Shown here: one piece after another, positions 6,140-28,892 of the stretch | Layout of the letters: each line of letters starts with the position of its first letter | Numbering within the stretch: position 1 is the stretch's first letter | Assembly (NCBI GenBank): GCA_035906055.1 | Contig: JAMIFV010000043.1 | Span: 455 to 64,454 of the forward strand | Length of the DNA: 64,000 nt | Direction: 5' to 3' | From: Alphaproteobacteria bacterium | GTDB lineage: Bacteria > Pseudomonadota > Alphaproteobacteria > Rickettsiales > JABCZZ01 | The notes under the pieces: model-generated | The model's input: the letters and a program-made list of their open reading frames with translations, nothing else | Told to the model about the DNA's origin: nothing | Databases searched by the model: none | Position numbers and translations under genes: made by a program

Positions 6140-7651
<1,512 letters not shown>

Positions 7652-8099
7652 TCATGCAAAAATATTCGCTAAAATGCAGAAATATGGCTAAATTAAGCCA
7701 TTGGAACCCTTCGCTTTGTAAGTTATACCTCAGAGACATTCTTTCCCCCGGCTACTCTCCGGGTAAAACCCCTTCCCTCGACACTTCCTTTGAAGCTGTA
7801 GTAGTCTCAGCCGGTAACACGCCGCTCAGTAAGCTAACCATCTCAGACGCAACCGTACTCACCAGCGCGCTTGTTCATAACATCAGCGACACCCCCAGCG
7901 GTTATGAAGCCCATTATACCGCGCTGATGCGGCATATCTGGTGACAGCCGCATTACGGTTACGCCGGAAGCGGAAGGCACGCTCGCTACAGTGTTCATGG
8001 CGCTGAGCAAGCAGTTGAATGGCCAGAAGCGCCAGCGCTAACAGCGGCTGTTCATCCATCGCAAGCGAATGAGCGCTTGGGCAAGGAAGTCTTTGGGGG

Positions 8100-8768
8100 T
8101 CATCCCCTGAATCCGGTCGCCACCAGGAATGTCTCCGCCGAGTCCTGACGCGAGGCCTTGGGCTTCACATGCTTTACCACCGCGAAATGTTTCTTCACCT
8201 CAGCCAGCAGCCCGCTCTGCGCACCGCCCTGCCACACCTTGGCCACGAACACGCCGCCGGGTTTGAGCACTTCGCAGGCGAACTGGAACGCGGCTTCCAC
8301 CAGCACCATGATGCGGATATGGTCGAGGTTCTGGTTGCCCGAAGCATTGGGAGCCATGTCGGAAAGCACGATATCCGCTCTGCCCATTTTCGCCTTGAGG
8401 ATTTCCGGCGCCGCGTCGCCCATGAAGTCCATCATGATGAGGTCAGCCCCCGGCACTGCCGGAATTTCCAGCAGGTCGATACCGATCACATTGCCTTCGC
8501 CGCAGCGCTGCACCGCCACCTGCGCCCAGCCGCCGGGCGCGGCACCGAGGTCCACCACATGCTTACCCTTGGCAAGGAATTGCAGCTTGTCGTCTATCTC
8601 GATGAGTTTAAATGCCGCGCGTGAGCGATAACCTTCCTGCCTGGCCCGCTGCACATAAGGATCATTCAGTTGTCGCTGCAACCAGCGCGCCGACGAATTG
8701 CTGCGGCTCTTCGCGGTCTTTACGCGCACGGTCATGCCGCGCGTGCCCGATTTTTTCTTCTCTGTCAT
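8100..8768 (-). CDS. rlmE: 23S rRNA (uridine-2'-O)-methyltransferase RlmE (FtsJ)
   Basis: WLQRQLNDPYV..A..EGYRSRAAFKLIEIDDK...VVDLGAAPGGWAQV motifs. The track ORF starts at 8795, inside the rplX terminator T-tract, so I prefer MTEKKK at 8768. Confidence 0.9.
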   Translation of the reverse strand: MTEKKKSGTRGMTVRVKTAKSRSNSSARWLQRQLNDPYVQRARQEGYRSRAAFKLIEIDDKLQFLAKGKHVVDLGAAPGGWAQVAVQRCGEGNVIGIDLLEIPAVPGADLIMMDFMGDAAPEILKAKMGRADIVLSDMAPNASGNQNLDHIRIMVLVEAAFQFACEVLKPGGVFVAKVWQGGAQSGLLAEVKKHFAVVKHVKPKASRQDSAETFLVATGFRG

Positions 8769-8792
8769 AGTTTTATATACCAATACCCAGGA

Positions 8793-8825
8793 CAATAAAA
8801 AACCCCTTCTTTATGGGAAGGGGTT
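8793..8825 (-). terminator. Rho-independent terminator after rplX
   Basis: Perfect 9-bp GC-rich stem: 8801-8809 AACCCCTTC pairs with 8817-8825 GAAGGGGTT, with a 7-nt loop. On the minus strand it is followed by TTTTATTG. It lies 26 nt downstream of the rplX stop. Confidence 0.65.
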
Positions 8826-8850
8826 CTTAATTTCAGTATCAAAAAGCCGC

Positions 8851-9174
8851 TTACGCTACGGTCTCACCGGAACGGCGCGCAATACGCACCTTGGAGCCGT
8901 CTGCCTGCAGTTTGTAACCAACGCGGGTGGCTTTGCCTTCTTTGGGGTCAACCAGCGCAACGTTGGAAATGTGCAGGGAAGCTTCCTTGCTGATGATGCC
9001 TGCAGCGCCGTCTTTGTCAGCGCGCTTGTGCTTCTTCATGACGTTCACGCCGGATACCACTACACGGTCGCTCTCGCGGATCACGGAAAGCACTTCACCC
9101 TTCTTGCCCTTGTCTTTGCCGGTGATAACGATCACGTTATCGCCTTTTTTGATTTTCAGTTTTTTCTGCGTCAT
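8851..9174 (-). CDS. rplX: 50S ribosomal protein L24
   Basis: 107 aa; KIKKGDNVIVITGKDKGKKGEV motif. Confidence 0.95.
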   Translation of the reverse strand: MTQKKLKIKKGDNVIVITGKDKGKKGEVLSVIRESDRVVVSGVNVMKKHKRADKDGAAGIISKEASLHISNVALVDPKEGKATRVGYKLQADGSKVRIARRSGETVA

Positions 9175-9183
9175 AAAAAATCC

Positions 9184-9246
9184 GTTGTTCGTTGTTAGTT
9201 ATTGGTTGTTAGTCATCCATGAACGAACAACTAACAACTAACAACC
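9184..9246. repeat. palindromic intergenic element built of GTTGTT(A/C) heptads (family A, copy 1)
   Basis: Sequence gttgttcgttgttagttattggttgttagt-catccatg-aacgaacaactaacaactaacaacc. The arms are self-complementary (GGTTGTTAGT/ACTAACAACC and GTTGTTCGTT/AACGAACAAC). It fills the rplN-rplX spacer. A second copy is at 16086-16149. Confidence 0.6.
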
Positions 9247-9247
9247 G

Positions 9248-9616
9248 TTATAATACTTCCGGCGCGAGCGAAACGATCTTCATGAACGATTTCGCACGCA
9301 GTTCGCGAACTACCGGGCCGAAGATACGGGTGCCGATGGGCTCGTTGTCCTTGCTGATAAGAACGGCCGCGTTGCGGTCGAAGCGGATAGCGCTGCCGTC
9401 CGGGCGGCGTACGGATGCAGCAGTGCGCACGATAACGGCGCGGTGCACCTGGCCCTTCTTCACTTTGCCGCGGGGAATCGCGTCCTTGATGGACACGACG
9501 ATCACGTCACCTACGGTCGCGGTCTTGCGCTTGGAACCACCCAGCACTTTGATGCACTGCACGCGCTTTGCGCCGGAGTTGTCAGCCACATCGAGGTTGG
9601 TTTGCATCTGAATCAT
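9248..9616 (-). CDS. rplN: 50S ribosomal protein L14
   Basis: 122 aa; [17 protein letters not shown]... Confidence 0.97.
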
Positions 9617-12109: not shown

Positions 12110-12943
12110 TTATACTTTCTTCTTGTGGCGGCTGCGGACAATGAAATTATCCGTGCGCTTATTCTTACGGGTCTTGTTACCCTTGGTGCCCTTGCCCCAT
12201 GGCGTAACGGGATGACGGCCACCGCTCGTGCGGCCTTCACCACCACCATGCGGATGGTCTACCGGGTTCATCGCCACACCGCGTACGCAGGGGCGAATGC
12301 CTTTCCAGCGGCTGCGACCGGCCTTACCGATCGTTTCGTTCTGGTGGTCTGGGTTGGATACGGCACCGATGGTGGCCATGCACTCACCCTTAACTACGCG
12401 AACTTCGCCAGAGCGCAGCTTGAGCTGCACCATACCGGAGTCTTTGCTCACGAGCTGCACGTACGCACCGGCGGCGCGAGCCATCTGGCCGCCCTTGCCG
12501 GGCTTCATTTCCACGTTATGCACGATGGTGCCAACGGGGATGTTACGAAGCTGCATGGCAAAACCGGGCTTTACGTCGGTCTTTTCACCGGAGCAGATCA
12601 CATCACCGACAGCAAGGCGCTGCGGAGCGAGAATATAAGAGAGTTCGCCGTCCTTGTATTTGAGGAGCGCGATAAACGCGGAACGGTTGGGATCGTATTC
12701 GATACGCTCAACAGTCGCATCAACATCGAACTTGTTGCGCTTGAAATCCACGAAACGGTAACGCTGCTTGTGGCCACCGCCTACGCGGAAAGCGGTGATG
12801 CGGCCAGTATTGCTGCGGCCGCCGGTTTTGCTGATACCTTCGGTCAGGGACTTAACGGGGTCACCTTTCCACAGGTCTGCACGGTCTACTTTTACCAGGC
12901 CACGAAGCGATTTCGTGACGGGTTTATAGGTTTTTAGCGCCAT
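12110..12943 (-). CDS. rplB: 50S ribosomal protein L2
   Basis: 277 aa; [23 protein letters not shown] motifs. Confidence 0.97.
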
Positions 12944-13000
12944 AACTACATCCTTATGTTTTGCGGCTGCTTTTTATACCCTTTTTATAAAGGGAGTCGC

Positions 13001-13029
13001 TTTATAGCCATTGTTACAAAAAATGCAAA
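13001..13029 (-). promoter_or_regulatory. candidate sigma70-like promoter upstream of rplB (created by or within the insert)
   Basis: The minus strand reads TTTGCA-17 nt-TATAAA (13029..13001), 58 nt upstream of the rplB ATG. Identified by eye only. Confidence 0.3.
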
Positions 13030-13055
13030 TGGAATCTTTGGAAAAAAGTCAAAAG

Positions 13056-13463
13056 CTATGGCGCTATCAGTTTAACCTGCGGAAAATAGCCCTGATAGCG
13101 GGTTACATCACGGGTAAGCAGGGGAAGTTTTGTCACGGACGCATGGGCACCGATGAAAAAATCGGGTAGAGCCATCACGCGCTGCCCTCCACGCTGCCGG
13201 TAAAGCCAATGCGCCTTCGCCGCTAAAAAAGCTGCTTCCCAAGGCAAGTCCTGCCTTATCAGTCCGGCTTCTGCTATGATTGTATCCAACAGGCTGGCTG
13301 ATGAAAAGCGATACGATATTTCGGCATAAATAATTGGGTTTATTATCAGCATATTATCAACTGACAATGCCGCTATTTTTCCTGATGACCAACCATACCA
13401 CTCAGAATTCTCTGTAAAAAGATCCAGCAGAATATTGCTGTCAACCAGTATGCTATCCATCAC
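13056..13463 (-). CDS. vapC: PIN-domain ribonuclease toxin VapC
   Basis: 135 aa. LVDSNILLD (N-terminal Asp), YAEISY (Glu), LPDFFIGAHA (Asp) and LLTRD match the PIN acidic-residue pattern. 4-nt ATGA overlap with the upstream antitoxin. Confidence 0.85.
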   Translation of the reverse strand: MMDSILVDSNILLDLFTENSEWYGWSSGKIAALSVDNMLIINPIIYAEISYRFSSASLLDTIIAEAGLIRQDLPWEAAFLAAKAHWLYRQRGGQRVMALPDFFIGAHASVTKLPLLTRDVTRYQGYFPQVKLIAP

Positions 13464-13690
13464 CCCTCGCCGCGGGTCAGGCGCATTATCTCATCAGTAT
13501 TCACGGAGATATCCCCTTTGCCGCGCAATGCTTCCACAATACGCGAGCCACGCGCCAGTGGCTTTGAAGCGGGGTGAACCACCAGTTCGCCATGCTTCAG
13601 GGTAAATTCCACTTCCGTATGCGGGTGTAAACCGCATAAGTCGCGGAACTCTTTAGGGATTGTAACCTGCCCTTTGGTGGTGATCATCAT
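13460..13690 (-). CDS. vapB: AbrB/MazE/SpoVT-family antitoxin (VapB-type)
   Basis: MMITTKGQVTIPKEFRDLCGL is a SpoVT-AbrB swapped-hairpin motif. The track ORF (to 13765) has an implausible N-terminal extension, so I use the start at 13690. Confidence 0.8.
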   Translation of the reverse strand: MMITTKGQVTIPKEFRDLCGLHPHTEVEFTLKHGELVVHPASKPLARGSRIVEALRGKGDISVNTDEIMRLTRGEG

Positions 13691-13691
13691 A

Positions 13692-13750
13692 GTAATACCT
13701 ATTGGTAAGAGTATTACCTGCATGGTATTACTTTTGGGCAGGAAAGTCAA
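13692..13750 (-). promoter_or_regulatory. candidate vapBC promoter/operator
   Basis: Minus strand has TTGACT (13750-13745). It is followed by three copies of GTAATAC (two direct, one inverted; plus-strand 13725-13731, 13711-13717, 13692-13698) that run into the start codon. This layout is typical of autorepressed TA operators. Confidence 0.3.
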
Positions 13751-13930
13751 GAATACTTCTGTCACAAGCTCTTAACTATAGTGATTCCAATTAATAACAT
13801 TACACAAGTAATTCCCCGACTTCTGGCAAAATTAGGCATAATGTTCAAAATTATTTAGAGCAAAGAGACTCCTCGCCAAAACAACGAACAGGCAGACAAG
13901 GTGGCGGCAGCTAAACTACGCCACATCTCT

Positions 13931-13976
13931 ACTAAAACAAAAAGGGCTTTTCGGAACTATATCCGAAAAGCCCTTT
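13931..13976 (-). terminator. Rho-independent terminator directly after rplW
   Basis: Perfect 15-bp stem: 13941-13955 AAAGGGCTTTTCGGA pairs with 13962-13976 TCCGAAAAGCCCTTT, with a 6-nt loop. On the minus strand it is followed by TTGTTTTAG. It lies 21 nt after the rplW stop. Confidence 0.6.
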
Positions 13977-13996
13977 CTAAAGCATTTAACTAAGGC

Positions 13997-14329
13997 TTAA
14001 GCCACGCCACTGCTTAAATCGATCGACTGGCCCTTTTCGAGGGTTACAATCGCTTTTTTGAAATCTTCACGTTTGCCAAAAGTGCCGCGGAAGCCTTTGG
14101 TTTTCCCTTCAACATTAATGGTATTCACACTAACAACGTTAACCTTGAAGAGGGCTTCCACTGCCTGCTTCACCTGCGTCTTGGTGGCGTCGGCAGCAAC
14201 ACGGAACACGATCTTGTTCTGCTCGCTGAGCATGGTTGCCTTTTCGGTAATCACCGGGCGGGAAAGAACGTTGTAGAAAACTTCCTTCATTACCGGCGCG
14301 CCTTTTGCTTCTTTCTTTGCTTTTGCCAT
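13997..14329 (-). CDS. rplW: 50S ribosomal protein L23
   Basis: 110 aa; [38 protein letters not shown]. Confidence 0.95.
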
Positions 14330-16085: not shown

Positions 16086-16149
16086 AGTTATTAGTTGTTC
16101 GTTGTTCGTTGTTGGTGAAGTTGCGAACAACTAACAACCAACAACGAAG
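16086..16149. repeat. palindromic GTTGTT(A/C)-heptad element (family A, copy 2)
   Basis: Sequence agttattagttgttcgttgttcgttgttggt-gaagttgc-gaacaactaacaaccaacaacgaag, with an 11-bp stem TTCGTTGTTGG/CCAACAACGAA. It fills the tuf-rpsJ spacer. Confidence 0.6.
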
Positions 16150-16159
16150 AACCACTTTC

Positions 16160-20072: not shown

Positions 20073-20444
20073 TCACTTGGGACGCTTAGCGCCGTAGAGC
20101 GAGCGCGACTGTTTGCGGTTCTTAACGCCCTGCGTATCGAGCGTACCGCGAATGATATGATAGCGAACACCCGGCAAATCCTTTACACGGCCGCCGCGGA
20201 TCATCACGACAGAGTGTTCTTGCAGGTTGTGGCCTTCGCCGGGAATATAGCTGGTAACTTCAAAACCGTTAGTGAGACGAACGCGGGCCACCTTACGAAG
20301 CGCGGAGTTAGGCTTCTTCGGCGTGGTGGTATATACGCGGGTGCAAACACCGCGCTTCTGCGGGCACGCTTCCATAGCGGGCACTTTGTTGCGGTGGGTC
20401 GGCTTTACGCGCGGTTTGCGCACGAGCTGGTTAATCGTTGGCAT
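20073..20444 (-). CDS. rpsL: 30S ribosomal protein S12
   Basis: 123 aa; [12 protein letters not shown]...[16 protein letters not shown]. Confidence 0.98.
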
Positions 20445-20904
20445 GCAACTTCCTTTGGTTCGTCGTTCACATTTTCACACATCACCCTGACACACTGCGC
20501 ATCGGGGAAGGTCTCTCCGGCATAAAGCATTGATTTTTTTTACAAATTCATGCCATTTAAGGCGCTTTTTGGATCAAAGAGGCGCGTAACATAGACATGA
20601 GCCCCCGGAACGTCAAGGGAAATTTATGTGTTTTTTAGATCACGGCCCGTGCCACTTATGAGCACATAATGCCATACCCTCTTAACCACGTAACGATTTC
20701 TTTACCTTTTGCTCCTAGCGTTCGCGTTTAACGGTGGCATTTTTTTGTGCCGGCCGTGATATTTTTACTTGCATTCCCGCTTTGGGTCGGGCTTAAAAGA
20801 AATCAAGAAAAACCCCGCATAAGGGGCCATCTACCGTCGCCGGTACACCACCTGTAGTAATCTGGCCATCCGGCCCGCCTAAGAAAGTTGCGAGTAAAAC
20901 AACC

Positions 20905-22497
20905 ATGATCCTCTTCCCGCGCGATGAGATTCCTGCGATTGCACCGGCCGCCGCCTCCCCGCTGCGCCCGCATGCGCACCGCAGGATCAACCGCCTGCGC
21001 GTATCGTGGTTCGTGCTGGGCGCATTGTGCGGCGTGCTCGTGGGGGTGAGCGCGGGCAAGCTTTCCGGCCCGCAGGAAACCGCTTCCGCCCCTGTTAAGG
21101 AAGTCATCGCCCAACCGGGTGCAGCCCCGGTTGCCGCAGCACCTGAACCCGCCGCAACAACCATTACCGGGGAACCGCCTGCACACATGCAGGCAGCCGC
21201 AGCCCCTTTGATTGAGCCCCTCCCAGAAGCTGCGACGCAGCCGGAAGTCCCCGTAGCAGCAGAAATGGCTGCCACCGCGCAGCCTGCCGCCATCACGCAA
21301 GCCCCAGCCGCAGCAGCGCCCGCACCGGAAGAGCCAGCCATCACCCTGCCCGCGACTTTTACTATCAAAGTGGAGAAAAAACAGACGCTCGCCTCCATTT
21401 TCATGGAGAATGGCGTGCCGGAGCCCGAAGCCAACGAGGCGGTGGACGCATTGAAGAAATACCTCAATCCCAAGCGCATCACCGCCGGGCAGATATTCAG
21501 CCTGAAACTGGACAAGAATAACCAGATCATGGGCGCCACCACGATTCTGGGCATGGAGATCGAAGCCTCTCCCGTGCGTACGGTAAAGCTGCAGCGTGAC
21601 TCGAAAGGCAAGCTGGTGGCGGGTGAAGTAAAGGCCGCGCTCAGCACGGGCATGGCGCGCGCTGGCGGCAGGATCCGCTCCAGCCTCTACCAGACCGCCA
21701 TCGACTCCGGCATCCCGGTTAAAATGGTCGGCGAGATCATCCAGGCCTTCAGCTACGACGTCGACTTCCAGCGCGACGTGAAGCAGGGCGATAAAATCGA
21801 CGTCGTGTTCGAACGTATCCATACGAATAAAAACGTCACCACCGGCACCGGAAAAATGCTCTACGCCTCGCTCACGCTGGGCGGCAAGGAGATGACCATC
21901 TACCGGCACACCGCCGCCGACGGCTTCACGGGGTATTACAACGCCAAGGGCGAATCGGTACGCAAGGCACTGCTGCGCACGCCTATCAACGGCGCGCATA
22001 TCACGTCGGGGTTTGGCATGCGCCGCCACCCCATCCTGGGTTACTCCAAAATGCATAAGGGCATGGATTTCGGCGCGCCTACCGGCACTCCCATCTATGC
22101 CGCTGGTGACGGCGTGATCGAGGAAGCGGGCCGCAAGGGCGGTTACGGCAACTATGTGCGCATCCGCCACACCAAATCCTACGCCACCGCATACGGCCAT
22201 GCCAGCCGCATTGCCAAAGGCATCCGCCCCGGCATGCGCGTGCGTCAGGGGCAGGTCATCGCGTATGTAGGCTCCACCGGCGCTTCCACTGGCCCGCATC
22301 TGCATTATGAAGTGATCGCAGGAAACTCACAGGTTAACCCGGCAGGCGTCAAGTTCCGCACCGGCCAGCAGCTCACCGGCAAGGAGTTTGCCGCGTTCAG
22401 AAAGAGCGTGAAGCAGGTGGAAAGCCTTACCGCTTCCGCCCCCGCCTCCAGAAAAACGCAGGTTGCTTCTGCTGGAAGCGCATCCCCTAAGCCTTAA
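20905..22497 (+). CDS. M23 family peptidoglycan metalloendopeptidase
   Basis: 530 aa. N-terminal TM segment, then a Pro/Ala-rich linker. C-terminal HKGMDFGAPTGTPIYAAGDG...GYGNYVRIRH...GSTGASTGPHLHYEV. The start codon is uncertain. Confidence 0.88.
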   Translation: MILFPRDEIPAIAPAAASPLRPHAHRRINRLRVSWFVLGALCGVLVGVSAGKLSGPQETASAPVKEVIAQPGAAPVAAAPEPAATTITGEPPAHMQAAAAPLIEPLPEAATQPEVPVAAEMAATAQPAAITQAPAAAAPAPEEPAITLPATFTIKVEKKQTLASIFMENGVPEPEANEAVDALKKYLNPKRITAGQIFSLKLDKNNQIMGATTILGMEIEASPVRTVKLQRDSKGKLVAGEVKAALSTGMARAGGRIRSSLYQTAIDSGIPVKMVGEIIQAFSYDVDFQRDVKQGDKIDVVFERIHTNKNVTTGTGKMLYASLTLGGKEMTIYRHTAADGFTGYYNAKGESVRKALLRTPINGAHITSGFGMRRHPILGYSKMHKGMDFGAPTGTPIYAAGDGVIEEAGRKGGYGNYVRIRHTKSYATAYGHASRIAKGIRPGMRVRQGQVIAYVGSTGASTGPHLHYEVIAGNSQVNPAGVKFRTGQQLTGKEFAAFRKSVKQVESLTASAPASRKTQVASAGSASPKP

Positions 22498-27210: not shown

Positions 27211-27212
27211 CT

Positions 27213-27250
27213 TGTCACCCCGCGCGAGCAACGCGAGTTGCGGGGTCTGG
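27213..27250. repeat. family D hairpin (inverted orientation), left flank of GIY-YIG gene
   Basis: TGTCACCCCGC-gcgagcaacgcgagtt-GCGGGGTCTGG. The reverse complement begins CCAGACCCCGC and ends GCGGGGTGACA, the same termini as 27568-27596. Confidence 0.6.
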
Positions 27251-27271
27251 CCATACAGCAGGGCGGAACAC

Positions 27272-28892
<1,621 letters not shown>

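Follow-up and report, generated by a model that had tools for sequence, protein, structure and literature searches.

A VapBC-type toxin–antitoxin cassette between rplW and rplB, probably a long-resident passenger in the S10 ribosomal protein cluster of an alphaproteobacterium

The S10 cluster of ribosomal protein genes is often regarded as nearly inviolable. Here we analysed a stretch of 64,000 nucleotides (nt) from contig JAMIFV010000043.1 of an alphaproteobacterium (assembly GCA_035906055.1; the whole stretch is called the window below), in which a vapBC toxin–antitoxin (TA) cassette is located inside this cluster, between rplW and rplB. The ribosomal protein cluster and every feature of the cassette lie on the minus strand of the window (Table 1). 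An earlier reading made from the sequence alone (the sequence-only reading) had reported a gap of 1053 base pairs (bp) between the two genes, and the map of open reading frames (ORFs) bore this out: 1053 bp separate the rplW stop codon (13997) from the rplB ATG (12943), and both genes are full length. The corresponding gap measured 0–40 bp in most of the 80 alphaproteobacterial loci that a search with L23 had retrieved. The gap is also AT-richer, as had been proposed, with a guanine-plus-cytosine (GC) content of 0.39–0.50 versus 0.55–0.61 in the flanks, and profile searches together with the ORF map supported the identification of an AbrB-type antitoxin gene and a PIN-type toxin gene within it. 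Downstream of the gap are nine ribosomal protein genes (rplB, rpsS, rplV, rpsC, rplP, rpmC, rpsQ, rplN and rplX), one more than the eight first counted, and rplX (8851–9174) is the last gene of this run. We read the cassette as a long-resident, tolerated passenger in a spacer that probably already contained a promoter, and not as the cause of a newly split operon; we put the probability of this reading at roughly 0.7. Among the papers searched, there was no relevant report of a TA module in an S10 operon or of an internal promoter at rplB.

Table 1. Features of the rplW–rplB junction in the window, listed in the direction of transcription.
Feature	Position	Strand	Evidence or description
rplW (L23, 110 amino acids, intact)	13997-14329	minus	Pfam Ribosomal_L23, E 4e-33, full length
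Window-specific AT-rich segment of 222 nt	13775-13996	minus	From the current rplW stop to the former cassette border
Intrinsic-terminator-like hairpin	13938-13979	minus	Terminator scan, inverted repeat I2 (100% complementary), folding
TAAGAGC, relic of the original left cassette border	13768-13774	minus	Alignment with L088
vapBC promoter-like element, TTGACT (13750-13745)-17-TACCAT (13727-13722)	13722-13750	minus	Promoter scan
Operator-like repeats	13692-13731	minus	GTAATAC/GTATTAC array from the -10 box to the vapB start codon
vapB antitoxin gene, 76 amino acids	13460-13690	minus	AbrB/SpoVT/MazE-type N-terminal DNA-binding domain
vapC toxin gene, 134 amino acids, PIN-domain ribonuclease	13056-13460	minus	Pfam PIN
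Right cassette border	13029-13055	minus	17 nt past the vapC stop, then start of the ancestral spacer (AAGATTCCA)
Ancestral rplW–rplB spacer kept 3' of the insert	12944-13028	minus	Alignment with the spacers of relatives
rplB (L2, 277 amino acids, intact)	12110-12943	minus	Pfam Ribosomal_L2_N and Ribosomal_L2_C, ORF map

In searches against PIN and AbrB profiles, both cassette ORFs exceeded the curated cut-offs. VapC scored 30.8 bits against Pfam PIN PF01850 (cut-off 23.6, E 5e-7), and VapB scored 30.1 bits against MazE_antitoxin PF04014 (cut-off 24.7, E 4.6e-7) and 35.8 bits against TIGR01439 AbrB (cut-off 28.3, E 4.8e-9). The four acidic residues of the PIN active site (D7, E47, D100 and D118 of VapC) were invariant in an alignment of 33 homologues. 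Single-sequence searches of the PDB with VapB and VapC returned no matches. An AlphaFold2 model of VapC reached a mean local confidence score (pLDDT) of 95.4 and a predicted template modelling score (pTM) of 0.88, and its best PDB matches in Foldseek were all VapC toxins (template modelling (TM) score about 0.70–0.75, 13–22% identity), including Rickettsia felis VapC2 (3zvk), the Shigella and Salmonella VapCs, Caulobacter VapC1 and several VapCs of Mycobacterium tuberculosis. The junction of the two genes reads GTGATG, so that TGA and ATG share 1 nt, or the genes overlap by 4 nt (GTGA) if vapC starts at GTG; the ATGA overlap given in the sequence-only reading occurs instead in a relative, L088. 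Searches of VapB and VapC against the PADLOC anti-phage defence models gave no match at E ≤ 0.1.

These results indicate that VapC is a divergent yet canonical PIN toxin, and the pair has several features of the VapBC class: a PIN fold, an acidic active site, and a small DNA-binding antitoxin gene that lies upstream of the toxin gene and overlaps it. The window module shares an AbrB-type antitoxin with R. felis VapBC2 (3zvk), the VapBC modules of Shigella flexneri and Salmonella, and VapBC-1 of nontypeable Haemophilus influenzae, and as in these modules its small AbrB/SpoVT antitoxin gene comes first and overlaps the PIN toxin gene (about 134 codons) that follows directly. The four acidic active-site residues are those of known VapCs, on which the predicted fold superposes with a TM score of 0.70–0.75, and the repeats overlap the putative promoter as in the entry for the R. 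felis VapBC2–DNA complex. Unlike the known VapCs, the window protein is only 13–22% identical to any solved VapC and falls below the NCBIfam equivalog cut-off; and unlike known VapBC pairs, which sit on a plasmid, in an island or at an ordinary intergenic site, this pair lies inside a ribosomal protein operon. Judged from its genes and signals, the cassette is probably a conventional type II VapBC module that looks intact and is apparently functional. The TA module itself is thus ordinary, and it is its position inside the S10 cluster that is unusual.

The region in front of vapB carries a candidate autoregulatory operator. GTAATAC is present in two direct copies (13731–13725 and 13717–13711) and GTATTAC in one inverted copy (13698–13692), over the putative vapBC promoter. 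The TTGACT box and the repeat array of the sequence-only reading are therefore present, and the "triple" repeat is resolved into two direct copies plus one inverted copy. The 7-mer GTAATAC occurs 10 times in 64 kb versus 3.0 expected, and three of these copies fall within 40 nt upstream of vapB. Among 100 loci, the composite pattern of 2 + 1 repeats was limited to L001 (a second assembly of the window junction), L088 and L089. L088 has TTGACT-17-TACCTT as the counterpart of TTGACT-17-TACCAT in the window, and it has kept the repeat array although its VapB and VapC are only 55–57% identical to those of the window. In the proposed mechanism, the C-terminal tail of VapB would bind VapC and neutralise the PIN ribonuclease, the N-terminal AbrB-fold domain would bind DNA, and VapB or the VapBC complex, bound to the GTAATAC/GTATTAC repeats, would repress the sigma-70-type promoter of the module.

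We then considered where this VapC subfamily occurs elsewhere. A search with VapC gave 3975 homologues (E ≤ 1e-3), of which the best apart from VapC itself was 60% identical. The subfamily is found on 139 plasmids of Rhizobium, Sinorhizobium, Paracoccus, Synechocystis and others, where it is annotated as VapC; among the matches listed, an AbrB/MazE/SpoVT gene lay under the match in 4 of 12 plasmid records. Chromosomal contexts include nhaA|mnmE (L090), a site 5' of valS (L093), etfA|nadE (L094) and a site after clpB (L101). The plasmid and chromosomal members, including the metagenomic P0002–P0120, resemble the window toxin over its full length (50–60% amino-acid identity), have the same type of partner and share the operator core GTAWTACTCTTAC, which is found 5' of members in contexts as unrelated as those of L090 and L094. 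This spread is as expected for a mobile, selfish TA family. Unlike these members in unrelated contexts, and among the homologues whose surroundings were looked up, the copies of the window and of L088/L089 alone lie between rplW and rplB. The cassette in L101 is flanked by 36 nt duplicated from the clpB 3' end (33/36 identical, equalled by 0/2000 shuffles; L101:230–330 and 1039–1198), a hint that members of the family go into the 3' ends of genes and duplicate their target.

The other end of the gap is occupied by an older element. Short spacers of insertion-free relatives align with window positions 13028–12944, and this part of the window contains TTGCAT (13028–13023), 16 nt, TATAAA (13006–13001), a conserved leader AGCAGCCGCAAAACAT and a Shine-Dalgarno site. 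The pattern TTGCNN-16-TATAAN, the GCCGCAAA(A/G)C leader and the Shine-Dalgarno site are conserved in seven lineages of the clade described below; the hexamers and their 16-nt spacing are invariant, and the intervening sequence varies from GC-rich (L082) to AT-rich (L097). In L097–L100 (16 contigs), rplB is detached from rplW and follows a tetratricopeptide repeat (TPR) gene and argF (L097:1825–3831), and the TTGCAT-16-TATAAA motif and leader are still kept before rplB. The element thus has the make-up of a putative sigma-70-type promoter, with two hexamers, fixed spacing and variable intervening sequence. Because the hexamers persist at fixed spacing when the upstream gene changes, a classic promoter signature, we infer that rplB–rplX had their own promoter in this clade before the insertion. 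The promoter-like TTTGCA-17-TATAAA described by the sequence-only reading is accordingly present in substance, but it is not a new one: it is ancestral and conserved both in insertion-free relatives and in L097. The claim that the insert splits the operon is not supported, since the element predates the insert and rplB already heads a separate locus in one lineage. Most likely the operon was already bipartite at rplW|rplB before the insertion, and the insert would not have created the split, because the promoter-like element is ancestral. As a separate observation, the rplB leader of the window (12970–12989, minus strand) has about 13 nt more than that of all relatives; the extra sequence lies between TATAAA and the conserved GCCGCAAAAC leader and forms a CTTTTTATA direct repeat together with a small hairpin (CCCTTT/AAAGGG).

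To place the junction phylogenetically, we collected relatives by looking up exact proteins and scanning for a DNA pattern, which yielded metagenome and Logan contigs; among GTDB representatives the genome scan found no close relative, with a best L23 identity of 60–64%. A tree of concatenated L3, L4, L23, L2, S19, L22 and S3 had the topology (L097,((L088,(L082,L086)),(L095,(window,L084)))), with every ingroup node recovered in at least 185 of 200 bootstraps. The clade is tight, with Kimura distances of at most 0.19 within it and 0.35–0.5 to named alphaproteobacteria. The nearest relatives, L084/L085, have no cassette and only a 77-bp spacer, in flanks that are about 90% identical in nucleotides and with an L23 that is 95% identical; L095/L096, L082/L083/L087 and L086 are likewise without the cassette, with rplW–rplB spacers of 80–83 bp. 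A homologous AbrB–PIN pair is located at exactly the rplW–rplB junction in L088 (ERZ12298641, a 63.7-kb scaffold) and L089 (SRR18649409). Comparison of the junction across the clade thus found the cassette absent in the sister lineages and present in L088/L089, and the rplB element ancestral.

This recurrence also bears on whether the locus could be an assembly or binning artefact, a chimeric contig that joined a TA locus into a ribosomal operon. The contig is metagenome-derived, and the only other copy of its junction, in the Logan assembly L001, is 100% identical over 4809 nt and probably comes from the same sample and reads, so that it excludes an assembler artefact only. Two different assemblies nevertheless share the junction, both flanks run into ancestral sequence at single-nucleotide resolution, and the architecture recurs in the unrelated samples of L088 and L089, which makes an artefact exceedingly improbable.

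The borders of the cassette agree closely between the window and L088. In both, 17 nt separate TAAGAGC from the -35 box downstream of it, and in L088 the rplW reading frame ends on the TAA of this motif. The distance from the vapC stop to the start of the ancestral spacer, or relic of the rplW stop, is again 17 nt in both. The right border of L088 (GGCATAAATTCCGGTTGC) matches the empty site of L082 (GGCGTAAATTCTGATTGC) at 15/18 positions (p ~0.001), and that of the window (AGATTCCATTTGC) aligns with L086 (p ~0.002). The L088 cassette is flanked by GGCGTAA ... GGCATAA, a 7-nt direct repeat and the only candidate for a target duplication. The 1053-bp gap holds no transposase or integrase ORF and no terminal inverted repeats. 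Two further candidates were rejected: a target-site duplication at the left border of the window (13996–13900 against the ancestral spacer), for which 51% of shuffles scored equally, and a duplication of the rplW 3' end past vapC like that of clpB in L101, for which the window gave p 0.10 and longer stretches of L088 were not significant. The short GGCATAA-ATTCC relic in L088 is the sole significant trace of a rplW 3'-end duplication.

On these grounds the long-resident passenger would have arisen in three steps. First, the common ancestor of both subclades would have received a single VapBC insertion, an old one, at the rplW stop codon. The cassette would then have been lost, or swapped for an empty allele, in L084/L085, L095/L096, L082/L083/L087 and L086; such replacement could have gone via recombination through the highly conserved flanking genes. 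Later, the window lineage would have gained the 222-nt terminator segment between rplW and the vapB promoter. The borders and the extra operator copy that the two cassettes have in common favour one insertion event. At 77–83 nt the rplW–rplB spacer of this clade is unusually long, and the insertion would have been tolerated because rplB to rplX could already be transcribed independently.

The alternative is that the cassette integrated twice, independently, in the window and L088 lineages, at a preferred target GGCGTAA at the rplW stop codon. Its patchy distribution would then need two gains in place of one gain and at least three losses, the GGCGTAA ... GGCATAA of L088 resembles a 7-nt target duplication, the 36-nt clpB-end duplication of L101 suggests insertion at gene 3' ends, and Rhodobacterales carry diverse cargo at the rplW–rplB junction. 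Against two insertions stand two features that the window and L088 have in common and that other subfamily members lack: the extra GTAATAC that forms the -10 box, and a distance of 17 nt at either border. Identities of 55–57% for VapBC also fit fast-evolving proteins at a distance where L23 is 72% and L22 68% identical (VapB 55%, VapC 57%), and no integrase, transposase or terminal inverted repeat was found in or near the cassette. We consider two independent insertions unlikely, but not negligibly so.

Several points weigh against the reading of an ordinary, long-resident module beside an old promoter. By event count, one ancient insertion needs at least three clean losses and two insertions need only two events, and the VapCs of the window and L088 are grouped weakly, falling in a clade of at most 5 of 120 sequences in 56 of 100 bootstraps, which also speaks for independent insertions. 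A profile search of the PDB with VapC gave weak matches only (best E 0.035), at which level the RNA target of VapC is not inferable; a match to a designed-repeat protein in that search was judged spurious. VapC scored 21.8 bits against the NCBIfam VapC equivalog NF047959 and did not reach its cut-off of 80, which places it in the PIN/VapC superfamily but outside that equivalog. The conserved spacer motif could instead be an RNA element; in L082 the spacer has a good fold (z -3.4). Consensus and conservation are the basis on which promoter, terminator and read-through are deduced, and we infer transcriptional behaviour, toxicity, repression and the order of events from sequence as well.

The left part of the gap is specific to the window. 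A perfect 15-bp stem (13976–13962/13955–13941) begins 21 nt 3' of rplW, exactly as had been noted, and the terminator scan, the inverted repeat and folding all agreed on it. The stem extends to 18 bp with 7 GC pairs and a 6-nt loop and is followed by UUUUUGUUUU, with a U-run to about 13926; its folding energy is -28.6 kcal/mol (z -6.2), and 0/200 shuffles folded as well. With a stem-loop and a U-tract on the transcribed strand, 3' of a stop codon, it has the build of a predicted rho-independent terminator. The 222-nt segment that contains it has a GC content of about 0.39–0.43 and TTAA at both ends, and has no counterpart in L088, where the rplW stop directly abuts TAAGAGC; the terminator is absent from L088, L084 and L082. 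Because the segment is missing from the homologous cassette of L088, the terminator appears to be a later, lineage-specific addition and not integral to the cassette. No second copy of the segment was found in the window or the 100 loci, so that it is unique to the window; as it also has no inverted termini, a repeated element of the miniature inverted-repeat transposable element type was rejected. An Rfam scan of the region gave nothing at the gathering threshold. A sub-threshold match to RF02363 Yfr11 (13936–14064, minus strand; 42.5 bits vs threshold 44, E 1e-5) was judged spurious; half of it lies in the 3' coding end of rplW and the remainder is the terminator hairpin. Yfr11 is a small RNA of a Prochlorococcus island (PMC2518516).

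Other structured repeats were seen nearby. Lineage-specific heptad-repeat hairpins of the form (GTTGTTN)3...(AACAACN)3 stand on the minus strand directly 5' of rpsJ (16087–16152; folding energy -30.7 kcal/mol, z -5.9) and of rplX (9184–9245; -25.4 kcal/mol, z -4.8), the latter followed by U6 and then the rplX ATG. The heptad motif has 13 matches in the window versus 1.1 expected, 12 of them in the two hairpins, and the thirteenth (13880–13892) falls within the 222-nt terminator segment. No match was found in 102 loci, including relatives that cover the tuf–rpsJ spacer.

The predicted terminator would shape how the passenger and its neighbours are transcribed. The hairpin would end most transcripts that come from 5' of rplW and probably shields vapBC from the strong S10 transcription there; vapBC would depend on a promoter of its own. 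The vapC–rplB spacer held no terminator and no significant structure (z -0.66); with no terminator after vapC, transcripts from the vapB promoter probably enter rplB alongside those of the ancestral promoter. This arrangement raises the question of functional coupling, suggested by the sequence-only reading, in which a promoter controlled by VapB or VapBC that reads into rplB–rplX, or the activity of VapC, would tune ribosomal protein supply or translation under stress. Besides the missing terminator between vapC and rplB, coupling could draw on the long maintenance of an intact cassette in two lineages and on the window terminator, which would leave the downstream genes on the vapB and rplB promoters only. 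The vapC 3' end (13066–13054) is also complementary to the rplB start region (12947–12935) at 12/13 positions, but complementarity over 13 nt is expected by chance about 0.4 times per 1.1-kb region (an estimate). In the closest relatives the same rplB promoter-like element and leader are found without the cassette, which indicates that the cassette is dispensable, and the subfamily is scattered over unrelated contexts and plasmids as selfish TA modules are. We therefore regard functional coupling as highly improbable. A related and very unlikely reading holds that the spacer is a long-lived "safe harbour" flanked by essential genes, in which VapBC has been present since before the split of the subclades, its autoregulated, stress-derepressible promoter feeding nine ribosomal genes and the terminator reinforcing this arrangement. 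If that were true, ribosomal protein supply would be partly wired to the state of a toxin–antitoxin switch.

The rplW|rplB junction is also interrupted outside this clade. Of the 80 alphaproteobacterial loci, 7 have accessory DNA of 0.9–5.5 kb there (L053, L066, L073, L075, L076, L077 and L078); most of the 7 are from Rhodobacterales, and the inserts are mutually unrelated. Their cargo includes a sulfotransferase (L076), a sub-threshold HEPN_AbiU2-like ORF (L075), a sub-threshold NHL-repeat match (L077) and several ORFs without a Pfam match. The Rhodobacterales are thus interrupted at the same junction as the window, but their cargo is not a TA pair, and in L097–L100 the S10 cluster is physically split at exactly the insertion junction of the window. 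In the gap of Marimonas arenosa (L076:3003–3164), a 53-aa (amino-acid) ORF repeats the C-terminal end of L23, which suggests that this insertion duplicated the rplW 3' end.

Other departures from the usual order were noted around the cluster. The ribosomal cluster of the window stops after rplX and is not followed by rplE, rpsN or rpsH (window 6140–9174); the genes on the same strand after rplX encode an FtsJ/RlmE methyltransferase (8100–8795) and inosine monophosphate (IMP) dehydrogenase (6140–7597). On the 5' side of rpsL is an M23 peptidase gene on the opposite strand, not rpoBC (20073–22497). L082 has two extra ORFs without a Pfam match in its str/spc clusters, one of 138 aa between fusA and tuf (1091–1507) and one of 148 aa between rplX and rplE (8982–9428), the latter at the position where the ribosomal cluster of the window breaks. 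Farther away, a 123-aa ORF with a GIY-YIG nuclease domain (27212–27583, plus strand; GC 0.46) lies between a KdsA-like gene (Pfam DAHP_synth_1) and enolase, with spacers of 2 and 8 nt.

Taken as a passenger of long standing, the cassette marks a soft spot of the S10 cluster at rplW|rplB in this clade, with TA insertion in two lineages and a full split in another, and Rhodobacterales carry assorted accessory cargo at the same soft spot. Repeated use of one and the same junction makes a tidy evolutionary case. The locus would be a clean example from nature of selfish DNA gaining entry to an essential operon because an internal promoter was already in place, and the window and L084, at about 90% nucleotide identity, form a presence/absence pair for the effects of an embedded TA module on essential genes. 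For annotation, the lesson is that a large gap in a ribosomal operon alone is not evidence of new regulation.

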